A stretch of 64,000 nucleotides of DNA from an uncultured Bacilli bacterium (GTDB lineage Bacteria; Bacillota_I; Bacilli_A; RFN20; CAG-826), in assembly GCA_905236395.1 (NCBI GenBank), contig CAJOPR010000058.1, positions 2,515-66,514 of the forward strand, read 5' to 3'. A model generated the notes under the pieces. That model saw only the letters and a program-made list of their open reading frames with translations. It was not told the DNA's origin and did not search any database. Below are positions 11,627 through 54,171 of this stretch, one piece after another. The first letter of the stretch is position 1. Every line of letters starts with the position of its first letter. Both the position numbers and the translations under genes were made by a program.

Positions 11627-11702
11627 GCCTACCTAGCTCAGTCGGTAGAGCTATCGGCTGTTAACCGATCGGTCGTAGGTTCGAGTCCTACGGTAGGCGC
11701 CA
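11627..11702 (+). tRNA. tRNA-Asn (GTT)
   Basis: Hand-folded cloverleaf: acceptor gcctacc/ggtaggc, anticodon loop ctGTTaa, T-loop ttcgagt, encoded CCA. Confidence 0.9.
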
Positions 11703-11705
11703 TCT

Positions 11706-11782
11706 GGCCCATTGGAGAAGTGGCTTAACTCACATGCCTTTCACGCATGCATTCATGGGTTCGAATCCCGTATGGGTCACCA
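11706..11782 (+). tRNA. tRNA-Glu (TTC)
   Basis: Acceptor ggcccat/atgggtc, anticodon loop ctTTCac, T-loop ttcgaat, encoded CCA. Confidence 0.9.
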
Positions 11783-16905: not shown

Positions 16906-16979
16906 AGGGGTGTAGCACAATGGCAGTGCAACGGTCTCCAAAACCGCTGATGCGAGTTCGATTCTTGTCACCCCTGCCA
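16906..16979 (+). tRNA. tRNA-Trp (CCA anticodon)
   Basis: Acceptor aggggtg/cacccct, anticodon loop ctCCAaa, T-loop ttcgatt, encoded CCA. Confidence 0.85.
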
Positions 16980-41569: not shown

Positions 41570-41646
41570 GGCGGATGTGGTGAAGGGGTTAACACACCTG
41601 GCTGTGAACCAGGCATTCGTCAGTTCAAGTCTGATCATCCGCCCCA
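41570..41646 (+). tRNA. tRNA-His (GTG) with an encoded G-1
   Basis: 8-bp acceptor stem ggcggatg/catccgcc, anticodon loop ctGTGaa, T-loop ttcaagt, encoded CCA. Confidence 0.8.
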
Positions 41647-49504: not shown

Positions 49505-49607
49505 TTAAAATTAAACGATATTAGAGAACAAAAGTTTTGATGATATCGTTTTTTGTTTACTGTTAATTGCCTATAAATATACAATAAAGGCAGAGATAAA
49601 TTTATTT

Positions 49608-51170
49608 ATGAAGCCTTTAAGAGTTTTATTACTACTTTCAGCATTCGCTTTGACAAGCTGTGTGGCTGGTAAGTCTGCACCCACAACGTCAGAACCAGAA
49701 GCACCCACTCAAAGTGGAGGTGGAGGAGGAGCGGTTGTTACTAATAACAACGGTCTGACTTCTGAGCAACGATTAGTGTATGGAAATCCTGTGGATGAGA
49801 CCGCACAATTATACGTTGTTATTGAAGCGGGACAAGTAAAACATCGTCTTAACTTTGATATGTCTCATTACTTATATGATGGTAGTTACAACCGTGTCTA
49901 CTCAATGGTCCTCCAAGGCTTCGGATCTGGATATAGTGAAGATCAACTATATCGTAACGATGAATTAAAGTTTTATATCAATGGCAACACAAGAGTGTAT
50001 CCAATCGCTGACTACTATAACCATTACGGTGGCACAGCAAGAAATAATCTCAAATTGCAATTAAGAAAAACATCTTATGGCGTCAACGAACCACGTTTAT
50101 TTGTTCGCGATGATTGCTACCAACCCACATTATATGTGACATGTTATAGTGACCACTATGAAGCGTTTTTAACCGGTTATTCAGGACAACACTATAGTGA
50201 TCCTTATGTCACTGTTCCTAACCCTAATGGAACAGAACTACCTCCAATTCCGCCTGAAACTCCTGGTGGTATCGGTGGTGATACTGGAACAAGTGGCGGT
50301 GGCGGAGGTACCCTATGGCCTCCAGCCGTTCCTAATGGCCCAGGTGGAAATACTCCTGGCGGAAACGAAGGCGAAAACCAAGGTGGCAATTCTGGAGGCA
50401 ATGAAGGCGGTAACTCTGGTGGAAATCAGGGTGGTAATGAAGGCGGTAACTCCGGAGGTAACCAAGGCGGTAATTCCGGGGGCAACAATAATGGCCCAAC
50501 CGAACAAGAAAAAGAGCAACTCGCCAATGACCTTAAAAACATTCAAAAGACAGGTGAGGGTACACCTCAATCTCCAAAAGTTCCTGCTCCTGGAACTGGA
50601 ATAAATGTTCAAATTGGTAAAACACCTGGAAATAATACTACCAATGGCGAAGGACAAAATGGTGACTTGTGCAATTACCTCAAGAGTGGCGGTGTCATTG
50701 AAAATACATATCGATACACAGTTGGCGAAACCTACGCTGGTGGCGGATATTCTTCTTTAACTTGGTATTATGGCGTCCGTTTAGCGTGGTATGCTGATTC
50801 TGGTTATGTCGTAGACATATTTGATCCAGAAGCTCCAAGTAGTGTTTGGATTAGATGGTCAATTGACGCTCCAACTGGATACAATGGCTCAACACTCCAA
50901 ATTACTCTAAGTAAGAGTAGGGCCAGCAATTTAATTAATAGAAATGAAGCGCTTGGAGAATTGTCATATTCATTACTCGATTTAGTTATGGATAAGTATA
51001 TGAGTGATCCAATAACTACAACATTTGGAATCTACAAGGTACTTTATTCTAGTCCTACTGAATTCTTCCTATGTGATAGTGGACCAGTTATAAGTGAATT
51101 AACAGTTTTAGGCTTTATGTTTGCATACGAGTTTTTCCTCGCATTAGCTGCGGCAAGTCAAGGGAGCTAA
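49608..51170 (+). CDS. Lipoprotein with tandem GGN(E/Q/S)GGNSGGNQ repeats
   Basis: Lipobox ALTSC. About 140 nt of near-perfect 30-nt tandem repeats (50355-50490). Confidence 0.6.
   Translation: MKPLRVLLLLSAFALTSCVAGKSAPTTSEPEAPTQSGGGGGAVVTNNNGLTSEQRLVYGNPVDETAQLYVVIEAGQVKHRLNFDMSHYLYDGSYNRVYSMVLQGFGSGYSEDQLYRNDELKFYINGNTRVYPIADYYNHYGGTARNNLKLQLRKTSYGVNEPRLFVRDDCYQPTLYVTCYSDHYEAFLTGYSGQHYSDPYVTVPNPNGTELPPIPPETPGGIGGDTGTSGGGGGTLWPPAVPNGPGGNTPGGNEGENQGGNSGGNEGGNSGGNQGGNEGGNSGGNQGGNSGGNNNGPTEQEKEQLANDLKNIQKTGEGTPQSPKVPAPGTGINVQIGKTPGNNTTNGEGQNGDLCNYLKSGGVIENTYRYTVGETYAGGGYSSLTWYYGVRLAWYADSGYVVDIFDPEAPSSVWIRWSIDAPTGYNGSTLQITLSKSRASNLINRNEALGELSYSLLDLVMDKYMSDPITTTFGIYKVLYSSPTEFFLCDSGPVISELTVLGFMFAYEFFLALAAASQGS
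50355..50490 (+). repeat. Tandem nucleotide repeat encoding GGNEGGNSGGNQ units
   Basis: Visible periodicity ggcggtaactctggtggaaatcagggtggtaatgaa. Confidence 0.7.
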
Positions 51171-51171
51171 T

Positions 51172-51513
51172 ATGGCTAGATTAAAAAGATATTGTGGACC
51201 ATATATCTTAGAATTTGATGGTAACAGGATCAAAGAATACTGTGGCAAATATCTCTATGAGATAGATGGTTTTAGAGTAAAAGAATACTGCGGAAAGTAT
51301 TTATACGAAATAAGCGGTAACCGCATTAAAGAGTATTGCGGTGTATATCGTATAGAAGTAGATGGCAATAGGATTAAAGAATACTGTGGCCGCTACCTAT
51401 ATGAAATAGACGGAAACCGTATTAAAGAATACTGTGGGAAATACCTCTATGAAATAGAAGGATTCTTATCCCATCAACAGTTAATGGCGCTTATCGCTAT
51501 ATTATTTGCATAA
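51172..51513 (+). CDS. Small protein composed of six tandem 16-aa repeats (RIKEYCGKYLYEIDGN) plus a short hydrophobic tail
   Basis: The repeat is visible in the translation. Its start overlaps the lipoprotein stop (TAATATG), and an RBS gggag is present. Confidence 0.55.
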   Translation: MARLKRYCGPYILEFDGNRIKEYCGKYLYEIDGFRVKEYCGKYLYEISGNRIKEYCGVYRIEVDGNRIKEYCGRYLYEIDGNRIKEYCGKYLYEIEGFLSHQQLMALIAILFA

Positions 51514-51561
51514 GATAATTACCCATACTTTGTATGGGTTTTTATATTAAAGGAGAACATT

Positions 51562-52968
51562 ATGAGTTACACAAAAGAAGAAATCCATCAAATCGTACTT
51601 AATCAGAAAGAGTACTTTCTAAAAGGTGAGACATTACCGATTAGATTTAGAAAGCAACAGCTAAAGAGATTAAAAGAAGCCATTCTCAAGAACGAGGAGA
51701 AGATTTGTGACGCTTTATATCAAGACTTAGGTAGATGTGAAGTGGAAGCTTATTTCTGCGATGTTGGTGATGTGGTTATGGAAATCAATGAATACATTCA
51801 TGGATTATCTAGATGGGCCAAACCAGAAAGACATTATTCGGGACTTGCCTCATTCCCATCATTCACTACGAAAGTGTATAAGATGCCTTATGGTGTCTCT
51901 CTCATCATTTCTCCATTTAACTTCCCGATCTTATTATCGCTAGGTGTTTTAGCCGCTTCTATTGCGGGCGGTAATACCGCAATTATAAAAGCCAGCAGTA
52001 AATCCGCAGCGTGTACACAAGCGATGAAAGAGATTATTGCCGAGACATTCCCACCAGAATATGCGATTGTTATCGATGGCGGACATGATGTCGCAGACTT
52101 CTGCTTAGAAGAACCAGTCGATAAGATCTTCTATACCGGTTCTCCAAATGTTGGTAAACACGTTATGGAAATTGCCAGCAAGAACTTAGTTCCAGTTACA
52201 CTGGAATTAGGTGGCGAAAATGGTAACTGGTGCATTATTAGAAAAGACGCAAACTTAAAAGATGCAGCGAGAAAGATTGCCTTCTTTAAGATTTGTAATT
52301 CTGGACAGATTTGTATCAACATAAATCAAGTGGCGGTGGAGAAATCTGTGGCTAAAGAATTTATTGAAGAACTCAAAAAAGCCATCATTAAACAGATTGG
52401 TGAGCACGCTCACACAAATGAAGAATATCCAAAACTTATTACTAGACGCGCTTACGATAAAATTGTTGAAGAAGCAGAACATTATAAAGAAAGAATTGTC
52501 TTCGGTGGTGAAGGTGATCCAGAGAAATGGAAATACGATCCCACAATTATCTATCCAGTGGATATCAACGAACCAATTGTGAATCATGAAATCTTTGGAC
52601 CATTACTTCCAATCGTTGAATATGAAGACAGTGAAATTGATAAGTTACTAGATACCATTTCTCGTAGAGAACATGGCTTAGCGCTATATCTATTCACCAA
52701 GAATATGAAATGGGCTAAAAAAGTTATGCAAACTCAACAATATGGTGGTGGATGCATTAACGAAGTTTGCTTACATCTCATGGTGAAAGGTGTTCCATTT
52801 AACGGAACAGGTCACTCCGGTATGGGCGCTTATCATGGTGTTTGGGGATTTAGAGAATTCACCCATCCATCGACAGTGTTATTTGGTAAGACTCACATGA
52901 ACTTACCACTTAGGGAACACCCATATAATCAAAAGAAAAAGAAACTTTTATCAAGTTTCCTTAAATAA
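51562..52968 (+). CDS. Aldehyde dehydrogenase (NAD(P)+), ALDH3-like
   Basis: ELGGENG and the catalytic Cys context ICNSGQIC. Confidence 0.8.
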   Translation: MSYTKEEIHQIVLNQKEYFLKGETLPIRFRKQQLKRLKEAILKNEEKICDALYQDLGRCEVEAYFCDVGDVVMEINEYIHGLSRWAKPERHYSGLASFPSFTTKVYKMPYGVSLIISPFNFPILLSLGVLAASIAGGNTAIIKASSKSAACTQAMKEIIAETFPPEYAIVIDGGHDVADFCLEEPVDKIFYTGSPNVGKHVMEIASKNLVPVTLELGGENGNWCIIRKDANLKDAARKIAFFKICNSGQICININQVAVEKSVAKEFIEELKKAIIKQIGEHAHTNEEYPKLITRRAYDKIVEEAEHYKERIVFGGEGDPEKWKYDPTIIYPVDINEPIVNHEIFGPLLPIVEYEDSEIDKLLDTISRREHGLALYLFTKNMKWAKKVMQTQQYGGGCINEVCLHLMVKGVPFNGTGHSGMGAYHGVWGFREFTHPSTVLFGKTHMNLPLREHPYNQKKKKLLSSFLK

Positions 52969-53023
52969 TCGGTTATAATATTATCTTAGAAATATACTTT
53001 TTAGACTGATAGGAGCCACTTTT

Positions 53024-53725
53024 ATGTTTGTATGCATCATTCTTCTCGGCTTAGGTTTAATGTCTCTTACGCTTTTCATTATTGAAAAGGTCAGAAAGTA
53101 CTCAGTTAAAGAGACATTACTTAAAGCTACAACATCCGCACTATTTATCGCTTTAGCGGTTTATTGTAACTACATAAAAGGTGCTGGATCCTATGGTATG
53201 TTTGTTATTTTAGGCCTAGTGGTGGGTATGCTAGGTGATATCTTCTTAGAACTTAAATATGTCTATCCAGAGCACGACAAACCATATTCATACGCTGGGT
53301 TCATTATGTTTGCTATCGGACATGTATTTTACATGTTGGGCATCTTTCTCAATTACTTTAAAGAAGCACATTTCTTATATATCCTTCTCCCATTCGTCTT
53401 TGGTGCGATTATGGCAGTAGCCATAATCCTTTTAGAGAAACCATTGAAGCTCAAATACGCAGACATGAAATGGATTTCTTTGGGCTACGCTTTATTCCTA
53501 TTCTCTAGCGTGGGAACCACAATCAGTTTTGCTATTCTCACACAATTCCAATATGTCCCAGCGATTATGTTCATGGGTGCATTAATCTTCTTTGCTGTCA
53601 GTGACTTAATTTTAAGTGGTACATATTTTGGCGTTGGTAAGGACAAACCATTCGATTTAATATCAAACTGTGTTTTATATTATGTCGCACAATTTGCCAT
53701 TGCCTTCTCCTTATTCTTTATCTAA
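53024..53725 (+). CDS. Polytopic membrane protein (YhhN-like size and topology)
   Basis: 8 predicted TM helices. No catalytic motif recognised. Confidence 0.35.
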   Translation: MFVCIILLGLGLMSLTLFIIEKVRKYSVKETLLKATTSALFIALAVYCNYIKGAGSYGMFVILGLVVGMLGDIFLELKYVYPEHDKPYSYAGFIMFAIGHVFYMLGIFLNYFKEAHFLYILLPFVFGAIMAVAIILLEKPLKLKYADMKWISLGYALFLFSSVGTTISFAILTQFQYVPAIMFMGALIFFAVSDLILSGTYFGVGKDKPFDLISNCVLYYVAQFAIAFSLFFI

Positions 53726-54171
53726 TGGAAACGCTATATAAACAAATAGAATCTTTAGTCAGTAATAAACTCCCGATGGTGAGTAATTTAAGCAATGTTT
53801 CAGCGTTGCTTTTTAAACTTGATAATCTCAATTGGGCGGGTTTTTATCTCGCTGATGAAAATGGCGATCTTTATTTAGGACCTTTCCAAGGCGATGTAGC
53901 GTGTAATTTCATTCCTTATGGCAGAGGTGTCTGCGGAACCGCAGTAGCGGAAAAGAAAACGATCATCGTCCCAGATGTGAATAAGTTTGATGGTCATATT
54001 GCTTGCTCCTCATTATCTAAAAGTGAGATAGTGGTGCCCATTATCAAGGATGGTTTAGTCTATGGTGTGATTGATATTGATTCACCGATATTAGATAGAT
54101 TCCATAAAGAGGAAAAAGCGTTCTTAGAAAAGGTTGCTATTTTACTCGCTGAGAACTGCTTTGGTAAATAA
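53725..54171 (+). CDS. GAF domain protein (free methionine-R-sulfoxide reductase-like)
   Basis: GFYLADENGDLYLGPFQG...CGTA pattern. About 148 aa. Confidence 0.65.
   Translation: METLYKQIESLVSNKLPMVSNLSNVSALLFKLDNLNWAGFYLADENGDLYLGPFQGDVACNFIPYGRGVCGTAVAEKKTIIVPDVNKFDGHIACSSLSKSEIVVPIIKDGLVYGVIDIDSPILDRFHKEEKAFLEKVAILLAENCFGK

Follow-up and report, generated by a model that had tools for sequence, protein, structure and literature searches.

A putative two-gene unit of an uncultured Bacilli bacterium encodes an ORFan lipoprotein and a predicted six-fold beta-flower protein

The beta-flower fold was first described in 2023 by mining AlphaFold models (Durairaj et al., Nature 2023, PMC10584680). 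The six-fold beta-flower is represented in Pfam by PF21786 (Bflower_3) in the Tubby clan CL0395, alongside PF21785 and PF21784, and a semi-conserved motif, [DNEQ]xxG, is found at the hairpin tips of beta-flowers (PMC10584680). In the Tubby-like fold, a barrel of 12 strands surrounds a hydrophobic C-terminal helix at its centre; beta-flowers differ from it in their shorter strands and loops and their circularly permuted topology, and Foldseek and HHpred do not link the two (PMC10584680). A phenotype has been reported for one beta-flower only, Cernunnos (PF21784), located in the sedentary chromosomal integron of Vibrio cholerae, which confers phage resistance (bioRxiv 10.1101/2024.07.02.601686). 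Tubby, LOR and scramblase proteins engage lipids or membrane surfaces with barrels built around a buried helix. To our knowledge, six-fold beta-flowers have not been studied experimentally. Among lipoproteins of the low-GC Bacilli lineage, those of the Vlp/Vsa type in Mollicutes carry repeats and are variable in phase or size.

We analyzed a window of 64,000 nucleotides from an uncultured Bacilli bacterium (contig CAJOPR010000058.1), in which a gene for a repeat-containing lipoprotein is followed by a gene for a 113-aa protein, referred to here as the flower protein. The features of the locus are listed in Table 1. ORF calls and Tandem Repeats Finder confirmed that both reading frames and both repeat arrays reported in the original prediction exist. 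The two genes do not overlap as had been stated, since the TAA of the lipoprotein gene ends at 51170 and is separated from the ATG at 51172 by a single T. The pair is very probably co-transcribed, as proposed originally, because the spacer is only 1 nt long, the Shine-Dalgarno sequence of the second gene lies inside the first, and hairpin terminators were found only outside the pair, before and after it. Read from the sequence, the two genes are one terminator-bounded bicistron. The terminator of the Xan_ur permease gene also marks the 5' boundary of this unit. Promoter-like sites were no commoner in the consensus scan than in shuffled sequence, so that the site upstream of the lipoprotein gene is weak when taken alone.

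Table 1. Features of the lipoprotein-flower locus (positions in the window)
Feature	Position	Strand	Basis and remarks
Hairpin and U-run at the end of the Xan_ur permease gene (upstream)	49513..49561	+	fold -13.5 kcal/mol, z -3.98, then UUUUUUGUUU
Promoter-like site TTTACT, 18-nt spacer, TACAAT	49556..49585	+	consensus scan, 9/12 matches; 22 nt upstream of lipoprotein ATG
Lipoprotein gene	49608..51170	+	ORF, 520 aa; ORFan
Lipoprotein signal peptide	49608..49661	+	lipobox L-T-S-C, Cys18; read from translation
Pro/Gly/Asn-rich low-complexity linker, residues ~205-350	50220..50657	+	translation; between two aromatic-rich domains
GGNx tetrapeptide repeats, ~12 units x 12 nt, 36-nt higher order (GGNEGGNSGGNQ)	50343..50489	+	Tandem Repeats Finder
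Lipoprotein C-terminal hydrophobic segment, residues 497-517, ELTVLGFMFAYEFFLALAAA	51096..51158	+	sequence; helix in low-confidence model only
GGGAG Shine-Dalgarno of flower gene	51162..51166	+	within 3' end of lipoprotein gene; 5 nt before ATG 51172
Flower gene	51172..51513	+	ORF, 113 aa; predicted six-fold beta-flower, Cys-bearing (YCG) subfamily
Six hairpin repeats of 48 nt (16 aa), residues 3-98	51178..51465	+	Tandem Repeats Finder
C-terminal hydrophobic helix, residues 101-112 (HQQLMALIAILF)	51472..51507	+	DSSP, pLDDT ~89-96
Intrinsic terminator 3' of flower gene	51521..51547	+	8-bp stem, 4 GC pairs, T-run; fold -13.2 kcal/mol, z -4.03

The flower protein is made of six 16-residue repeats (consensus RIKEYCGxYLYEIDGN), after which comes a hydrophobic tail, LSHQQLMALIAILFA, in agreement with the original description. 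Tandem Repeats Finder counted 5.8 copies of a 48-nt period (51179-51458; 69% matches), and the mean pairwise identity of the repeats is 65% at the nucleotide and 71% at the amino acid level. Structure prediction with AF2 yielded a confident model (pLDDT 95.3, pTM 0.85) with 12 strands, alternating between 4 and 6 residues in length, that form six hairpins (E-E x6) and are followed by a helix; the proposal that the repeats are beta-hairpins was thus borne out by the model. The helix, with the stretch LMALIAILF, is kept in orthologues and in distant relatives, and from homology with described beta-flowers we infer that it is enclosed by the barrel. A signal peptide was not found in the protein, which should therefore stay in the cytoplasm.

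The repeats had been likened to a YD/RHS motif. A Pfam search gave no match to RHS/YD, MORN or KWG families even at E<=1 and pointed to the beta-flowers instead. The flower protein itself matches PF21786 with 14.3 bits (E 0.04), below the Pfam gathering cut-off of 34. Its relative P0026, found by phmmer at E 2.6e-15 in a library of 1.8 billion proteins, passes the gathering cut-offs with 39.2 bits on PF21786 and 40.6 bits on PF21785, and a profile of the flower orthologues aligns with P0026 over 105 columns (hhalign 98.9%, E 2.8e-17), in register over all six repeats and the helix. PF21786 is matched by 13 of the 67 phmmer relatives; three giant multi-repeat relatives (P0015, P0039 and P0043) were judged on inspection to be spurious repeat matches. 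The hairpin-tip motif is kept as well, as E-[IFV]-[DSE]-G at repeat positions 12-15; the frequencies are 0.83 for E at position 12 and 0.82 for G at position 15 (41 orthologues, six repeats each). Searching the PDB by sequence with the orthologue profile returned chance-level matches only, and Foldseek found no PDB structure at E<=1e-3, including the Tubby-like 2FIM and 1ZXU, which agrees with the earlier report (PMC10584680).

By its predicted fold, the 113-aa protein is a divergent six-fold beta-flower. It shares with the described six-fold members, which are mostly bacterial and to which it is significantly linked in sequence via those that are Pfam-positive, a length of about 110-120 aa, the six short hairpins with 12 strands, the tip motif and the C-terminal hydrophobic helix. 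It differs from the Pfam-positive flowers in carrying Tyr-Cys-Gly in each inter-petal loop, where these have Ser, Met or Asn, and, unlike those described flowers that are lipoproteins, it lacks a signal peptide. Like YD/RHS proteins, it is built of beta-hairpins repeated in tandem, with many Tyr, Asp and Gly residues; unlike them, it is predicted to form a closed unit of 113 residues with a terminal helix rather than a long shell-forming array, and it has no toxin or cargo domain. A match to a known characterised family had been named as speaking against the original prediction; this applies by half, since the protein falls into a known family that bears a name but has no characterised function.

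The cysteine-bearing subfamily has members in no fewer than 45 Bacilli species of the rumen and gut, with 45 loci from genomes and 80 from metagenomes. Since the same six-repeat layout is seen in 41 aligned orthologues, whose assemblies are independent, it is neither a product of chance nor an assembly artefact, a concern that had been raised for these repeats. In 40 orthologues, every one of the six repeats has YCG without exception, and the cysteines are conserved at 240 of 240 positions. Comparison with the closest orthologue indicates purifying selection (dN 0.11, dS saturated), and the subfamily is, on this sequence evidence, old and strongly constrained. Selection for synonymous diversification of the repeats had also been suggested. 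The fraction of identical codons between the repeats of the window protein was 0.47 against 0.52 expected from simulation, and over 36 orthologues observed and expected values were the same (0.526 and 0.526). Because synonymous sites between repeats are at the neutral expectation, the repeats are simply old and saturated, not selected for diversification.

The lipoprotein begins with MKPLRVLLLLSAFALTSC, a canonical lipoprotein signal, and its lipobox MKPLRVLLLLSAFALTS-C18, read from the translation, agrees with the established consensus [LVI][ASTVI][GAS]C. The linker between its two aromatic-rich domains has a local GC content of 0.51, compared with about 0.37 in the flanks. Searches with the full-length or the repeat-removed query returned self-matches only among 5.8 billion proteins, as did the JGI metagenome scan, and Pfam, NCBIfam, PADLOC and PHROG gave no match. 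Homologues are likewise absent from about 125 loci of related flower genes, including by tblastn of the fetched loci. Judged by these searches, the lipoprotein is a true, species-specific ORFan. The single-sequence AF2 model is unusable (pLDDT 33). We considered a LOR/Tubby-like barrel at the C-terminus, which would have made a pairing of LOR and flower universal, and rejected it (hhalign probability 0.3%; the weak model predicts extra helices).

The GGN array of the lipoprotein had been described as nearly identical repeats and as a candidate for length or phase variation. Tandem Repeats Finder detected periods of 12, 24 and 36 nt (50358-50486), the units matching each other at only 64-85%; exact direct repeats reach 17 nt at most. 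All unit sizes are divisible by 3 and therefore in frame; this differs from slipped-strand contingency loci, in which near-identical units shift the frame or the promoter spacing. The same 520-aa protein is encoded by all four contigs that carry the gene, and the databases hold no other variant. Because the units are in frame and diverged and the protein is identical on four contigs, the sequences give no evidence of phase or length variation, and the GGN repeats look like the most regular stretch of an ordinary flexible linker, not like a genetic switch. The protein resembles the Vlp/Vsa-type lipoproteins in its internal tandem repeats and in coming from a low-GC organism of the Bacilli lineage; it differs from them in its short (12 nt) and diverged units, in showing no evident homopolymeric or promoter switch, no paralogue family within the window and no variant among the four contigs.

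The genes upstream of related flower genes are diverse and include those for HD-GYP, subtilase, LOR and ABC transporter proteins, among others, and no universal operon partner was found among 137 neighbour proteins. LOR (PF04525), which like the Tubby C-terminal domain and phospholipid scramblase belongs to the same Pfam clan and shows a likeness in fold to the flower, is encoded directly upstream of it in 8 species as well as on 8 contigs from metagenomes; at the 8 genome loci, about 1-4 nt lie between the LOR stop and the flower start. Sequence similarity between the LOR and the flower profiles was not detectable (hhalign probability 0.2%). YhhN, DUF1295 and aldehyde dehydrogenase (ALDH) genes are loose but recurrent neighbours. 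All these associations are limited to subclades, where they may reflect residual synteny. Same-strand upstream gaps of at most 15 nt were present at 21 of 36 flower loci (58%), compared with 41% of other gene pairs; unusually tight coupling was rejected as an explanation, the difference being confounded by one clade of 8 species. Among the relatives there are proteins with a lipoprotein signal or with two TM helices at the N-terminus, and the distant flowers P0012 and P0026 are lipoproteins themselves.

Several explanations of the locus were weighed against each other. The two proteins might form a dedicated system, with the flower assisting, anchoring or regulating the lipoprotein, perhaps via the C-terminal hydrophobic helix of the latter. 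The 1-nt spacer, the internal Shine-Dalgarno sequence and the single terminator-bounded unit are what such a pair would have, and the lipoprotein nature of P0012 and P0026 fits as well; however, the searches found no homologue of the lipoprotein at about 125 flower loci or elsewhere, the products should end up in different compartments, and flower genes are packed as tightly behind unrelated genes in other genomes. We regard a dedicated pair as quite unlikely. Tight translational coupling could still mean a functional link between the two proteins in this lineage. The reading as a YD/RHS-like hairpin protein, with repeats kept synonymously different against recombination and GGN slippage in the lipoprotein driving length or phase variation, is extremely improbable and already largely refuted: the predicted hairpins and the 12/24/36-nt periodicities agree with it, but the empty Pfam searches, the saturated codon identity, the in-frame and diverged units and the identical lipoproteins speak against it.

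A role in phage defence, in which infection may make the flower release its buried hydrophobic helix into the membrane, is suggested by the phage resistance conferred by Cernunnos, and the flower is small, occurs in varied genomic contexts and is tied to no one conserved operon. Cernunnos also contains a beta-flower domain, but one that is four-fold and borne by cassettes or prophages in Pseudomonadota and Bacteroidota, whereas the window protein is six-fold and chromosomal. The latter has no PF21784 match at E<=1 and only a chance-level PADLOC match; the genes around it are housekeeping ones that show no integrase, mobile-element or defence-island signature, and it is absent from the viral contigs of IMG/VR. 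A phage origin was rejected, as the Cys-type was not found in IMG/VR and the only PHROG match was weak (phrog_26912, E 4.6e-5). The strong long-term purifying selection and orthologue-like conservation across its host species also argue against defence, which we consider very unlikely here.

Taken together, the data are probably best explained by a self-contained two-gene transcription unit that pairs an ORFan lipoprotein with a beta-flower of an old subfamily by chance. The first gene would encode two aromatic-rich domains joined by a flexible Pro/Gly/Asn-rich linker of about 150 residues, and the second a cytoplasmic protein whose six hairpin petals would close into a shallow barrel around its own C-terminal hydrophobic helix. 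The pairing would be a lineage-specific accident of gene order and not a conserved system, because the lipoprotein is an ORFan that is missing from the other flower loci. The flower may be a small membrane-proximal binding module working in the manner of Tubby, LOR and scramblase, its relatives in the clan; this role is weakly favoured by analogy because of the lipoprotein and TM signals of its relatives, the adjacency of LOR and the YhhN, DUF1295 and ALDH neighbours. The ring of six cysteines would be an addition specific to the subfamily. We hold it unlikely that the subfamily is a functionally distinct beta-flower whose six cysteines form a ring on one barrel face, as a symmetric metal/redox site or site of covalent modification, with LOR, YhhN, DUF1295 and aldehyde dehydrogenase as partners at the cytoplasmic membrane face of anaerobic gut Bacilli.

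The outcome is cleanly negative for an RHS-like repeat, recombination avoidance and phase variation. The current Pfam models miss a large and well-conserved cysteine-containing subfamily in Bacilli of the rumen and gut; purifying selection on this subfamily is strong, and its constraints are six-fold-symmetric. The beta-flower fold is without an assigned function, which makes any clue useful. The operon linkage of LOR and flower in one clade is the first genomic, non-structural hint that ties beta-flowers to the Tubby clan, and a metal or redox role of the six cysteines, if true, would be the first biochemical function for the fold.

The 113-aa protein (here the flower protein) consists of MA, six 16-residue tandem repeats (RLKRYCGPYILEFDGN, RIKEYCGKYLYEIDGF and so on) and LSHQQLMALIAILFA. 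Its predicted repeat structure was borne out by translation and by the 48-nt period found with Tandem Repeats Finder (51179-51458, 5.8 copies, 69% matches). The repeats had been likened to YD/RHS motifs; no YD/RHS, MORN or KWG match was present in Pfam even at E<=1, and NCBIfam gave no match. The only suggestive Pfam match was PF21786 ('6-fold beta flower protein') with 14.3 bits at a cut-off of 34. The beta-flower fold was first described by Durairaj et al. (Nature 2023, PMC10584680) as a shallow barrel whose 8, 10 or 12 short strands form four, five or six hairpin 'petals'. The AlphaFold2 model of the flower protein (11-sequence alignment, pLDDT 95.3, pTM 0.85) contains 12 strands, 4 and 6 residues in alternation, followed by a helix (residues 101-112), exactly matching the published six-petal topology. 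The strands presumably close into a barrel around this C-terminal helix. The hairpin tip, E-x-D/S/E-G (E 0.83, G 0.82), agrees with the tip motif given in the same paper (PMC10584680).

An exhaustive phmmer search of 1.8 billion representatives yielded 213 matches at E<=1e-3; long multi-stretch matches proved on inspection to be spurious repeat matches. Among 67 relatives of 110-260 aa, PF21786 was detected in 13, PF21784 in 8 and PF21785 in 6. Relative P0026 (phmmer E 2.6e-15 to the window protein) scored above the curated Pfam thresholds, with 39.2 bits for PF21786 and 40.6 for PF21785, and hhalign matched it to a profile of 41 orthologues (probability 98.9%, E 2.8e-17), with repeats one to six and the helix all in register. 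The 113-aa protein belongs to the beta-flower fold, which is known but functionally dark. Its exact sequence (51172-51510) was reported absent from a 15-billion-protein collection, yet a 113-aa gene is called at the same position on the ENA contig (L001:7565-7906); the missing entry probably reflects incomplete registration of small proteins.

Scanning one genome per GTDB species revealed 45 flower loci, exclusively in uncultured rumen/gut MAGs labelled Bacilli, Erysipelotrichaceae, Acholeplasmatales and similar. Nearly all encode 113-aa orthologues (identity 45-87%), the closest having dN 0.11 and saturated dS to the window gene. A metagenome scan added 80 loci; IMG/VR viral contigs contained none. 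All six cysteines of the inter-petal YCG loops are invariant in 40 in-register orthologues (240/240), whereas Pfam-positive relatives carry Ser, Met or Asn at the aligned residue and many free-standing 115-aa relatives have FSG or YSG in that loop. These alignments indicate that the Cys ring is a subfamily-specific feature under absolute constraint.

Some relatives carry lipoprotein signals (P0012, P0026) and others two N-terminal transmembrane helices (e.g. P0073), which points to a generally membrane-proximal flower domain. The window protein is presumably cytoplasmic, since it has no signal peptide. A large distant group of 240-260 aa (P0073, P0074, P0078, P0082, P0091, P0098, P0099 and others), missed by Pfam (P0073: no match), has the flower domain C-terminal to the two helices (MRRQ..., positive-inside), which would tether it to the membrane on the cytoplasmic side. 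Three-repeat 'half-flowers' of 65 aa also exist (P0005, P0006, P0009, P0010), with the same C-terminal helix after their repeats. Half-flower genes lie at L049:1406-1603, directly 3' of YhhN and GAF genes such as also occur near the window gene, and at L047:2641-2838, flanked by LuxC/LuxE-like genes and a CobW gene. Phage family phrog_26912 (69 positions) weakly matches the window protein (E 4.6e-5).

The flower repeats share on average 65% nucleotide and 71% amino-acid identity pairwise. For codon pairs encoding the same residue in two repeats, identical codons were compared with draws from local usage: 47% were the same in the window (expected 52 +/- 5%), and the mean over 36 orthologues was 0.526, observed and expected alike, with four outliers in the upper and two in the lower tail. 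The proposed selection for synonymous diversification thus left no signal. Several species share repeat-specific signatures (YIAE in repeat 5, YLLEFDG[KR]R in repeat 4), and between species same-index repeats are more alike than different-index repeats (0.61 vs 0.51), which argues that the repeats are ancient, with silent sites simply saturated. Repeat position 8, after YCG, is uniform within a protein (PPPPPP or NNNNNN; z 11 against column shuffling of the orthologue alignment) and varies between species, and position 4 frequently reads RERERE, so that pairs of hairpins show three-fold pseudo-symmetry. These patterns suggest symmetric co-selection or occasional gene conversion.

Both predicted ORFs are present in the window. 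They were thought to overlap; the lipoprotein TAA (51168-51170) is followed by a single T and the flower ATG at 51172. The two-gene unit is bounded by hairpins and has no terminator between its genes, so that co-transcription and translational coupling are likely. At gathering thresholds, Rfam detected no riboswitch or other RNA element near the locus; its sole matches in the window were four tRNA genes (11627-11779, 16906-16976, 41571-41643).

Features of the locus in the window, and recurrent neighbours of flower genes at loci from other genomes and metagenomes (L numbers)
Feature	Position or loci	Strand	Details
Hairpin and U-run ending upstream permease gene	49513-49551		-13.5 kcal/mol, z -4.0
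Promoter-like site, weak	49556-49585
Lipoprotein ORF	49608..51170	+	520 aa
Tyr-rich domain of lipoprotein	about residues 45-205
Pro/Gly/Asn-rich linker of lipoprotein			about 150 residues, holds GGNx units
C-terminal hydrophobic helix of lipoprotein	51096-51158		21 residues, ELTVLGFMFAYEFFLALAAA
Shine-Dalgarno of flower gene	51162-51166		GGGAG
Flower ORF	51172..51513	+	113 aa
Hairpin and UUUUU ending flower gene	51521-51539		-13.2 kcal/mol, z -4.0
LOR-flower block, genomes	L015:3121-8307; L011, L016, L017, L024, L028, L031, L035
LOR-flower block, metagenomes	L062, L063, L067, L072, L083, L084, L089, L094
GAF near flower gene	window, L002, L021, L025, L049/50, L060, L132
YhhN near flower gene	window, L007, L049
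DUF1295 near flower gene	window, L002, L029, L018, L008
Close homologue of window aldehyde dehydrogenase near flower gene	L095, L056
Recurrence of window genes 3' of flower gene, coordinates	L095:2281-3651; L056:685-2052; L060:3554-3979; L007:1805-2533

As predicted, the upstream protein has a textbook signal of a lipoprotein at its N-terminus (MKPLRVLLLLSAFALTSC), its lipobox reading L-T-S-C. Next come a Tyr-rich domain, the linker and another aromatic-rich domain, which closes with a hydrophobic helix; the protein would carry a lipid anchor at its N-terminus and, at its C-terminus, possibly a membrane segment or a buried helix. Pfam, NCBIfam, PADLOC and PHROG gave no match, a search of 5.8 billion proteins, full-length or without the low-complexity middle, returned only the protein itself, a JGI metagenome scan returned nothing, and no relative is encoded at roughly 125 flower loci. 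Only the Gly/Pro-rich linker departs from the base composition of the flanks, and single-sequence AF2 was uninformative (pLDDT 33). Overall, the lipoprotein is an unremarkable ORFan, and its linker is of low complexity. Its GGN repeats have periods of 12, 24 and 36 nt (50358-50486, Tandem Repeats Finder) and had been called near-identical; the units match at 64-85%, and no exact direct repeat is longer than 17 nt.

Upstream of flower genes elsewhere lie HD-GYP, S8 subtilase, ABC transporter, CobW-like, amidohydrolase or HAD lipoprotein and other genes. The sole recurrent partner is LOR (PF04525, LURP-one-related, Tubby clan), found in a block of GGDEF/EAL, LOR, flower, cytidine-type deaminase and Xan_ur permease genes in 8 species and 8 metagenome contigs, with LOR-flower gaps of about 1-4 nt at the 8 genome loci. 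The block LOR protein has 167 aa and about 82% identity between species. In the window, genes for an aldehyde dehydrogenase, YhhN (which we take to be lysoplasmalogenase-like) and a GAF-only protein follow the flower gene (51562-54171); the same three adjoin flower genes in more distant species in differing order. These looser neighbours may reflect residual or decaying synteny, and the three genes may form a lipid- or aldehyde-related neighbourhood. Several of the neighbour genes encode membrane-lipid enzymes, which is weak evidence for a role linked to lipids or membranes.

Any function of the flower protein we infer from such evidence; we weakly favour a small binding module, Tubby/LOR-like and membrane-proximal. 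A functional pairing with the lipoprotein, specific to this lineage, would fit the tight packing in the window, but flower genes have an unrelated gene at most 15 nt upstream in 21/36 cases, so that tight packing is their usual state and not a mark of partnership; the pair is not a conserved system, and we regard such pairing as improbable. An anti-phage role draws on Cernunnos, the only beta-flower for which a phenotype has been reported (bioRxiv 10.1101/2024.07.02.601686); since Cernunnos is four-fold and cassette-borne, unlike the window protein, we consider this role more doubtful still. Least credible is an RHS protein joined to a contingency locus: the tandem repeats are real, and GGN slippage by whole units could alter length but not frame, because the units are 12, 24 and 36 nt. 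Phase variation is unsupported, with frame-neutral, diverged units and an identical lipoprotein in 4/4 contigs carrying the gene. The observation behind the original prediction is real with two factual corrections; its interpretation is right only in part.

The window protein is a new beta-flower, in a Cys-bearing subfamily that had not been modelled before. Through the LOR-flower block, beta-flowers are linked at the genomic level to a Tubby-like protein, a connection that the accessible sections of the beta-flower paper (PMC10584680) do not mention. Experiments are best directed at the invariant six-Cys ring and the linkage to LOR.
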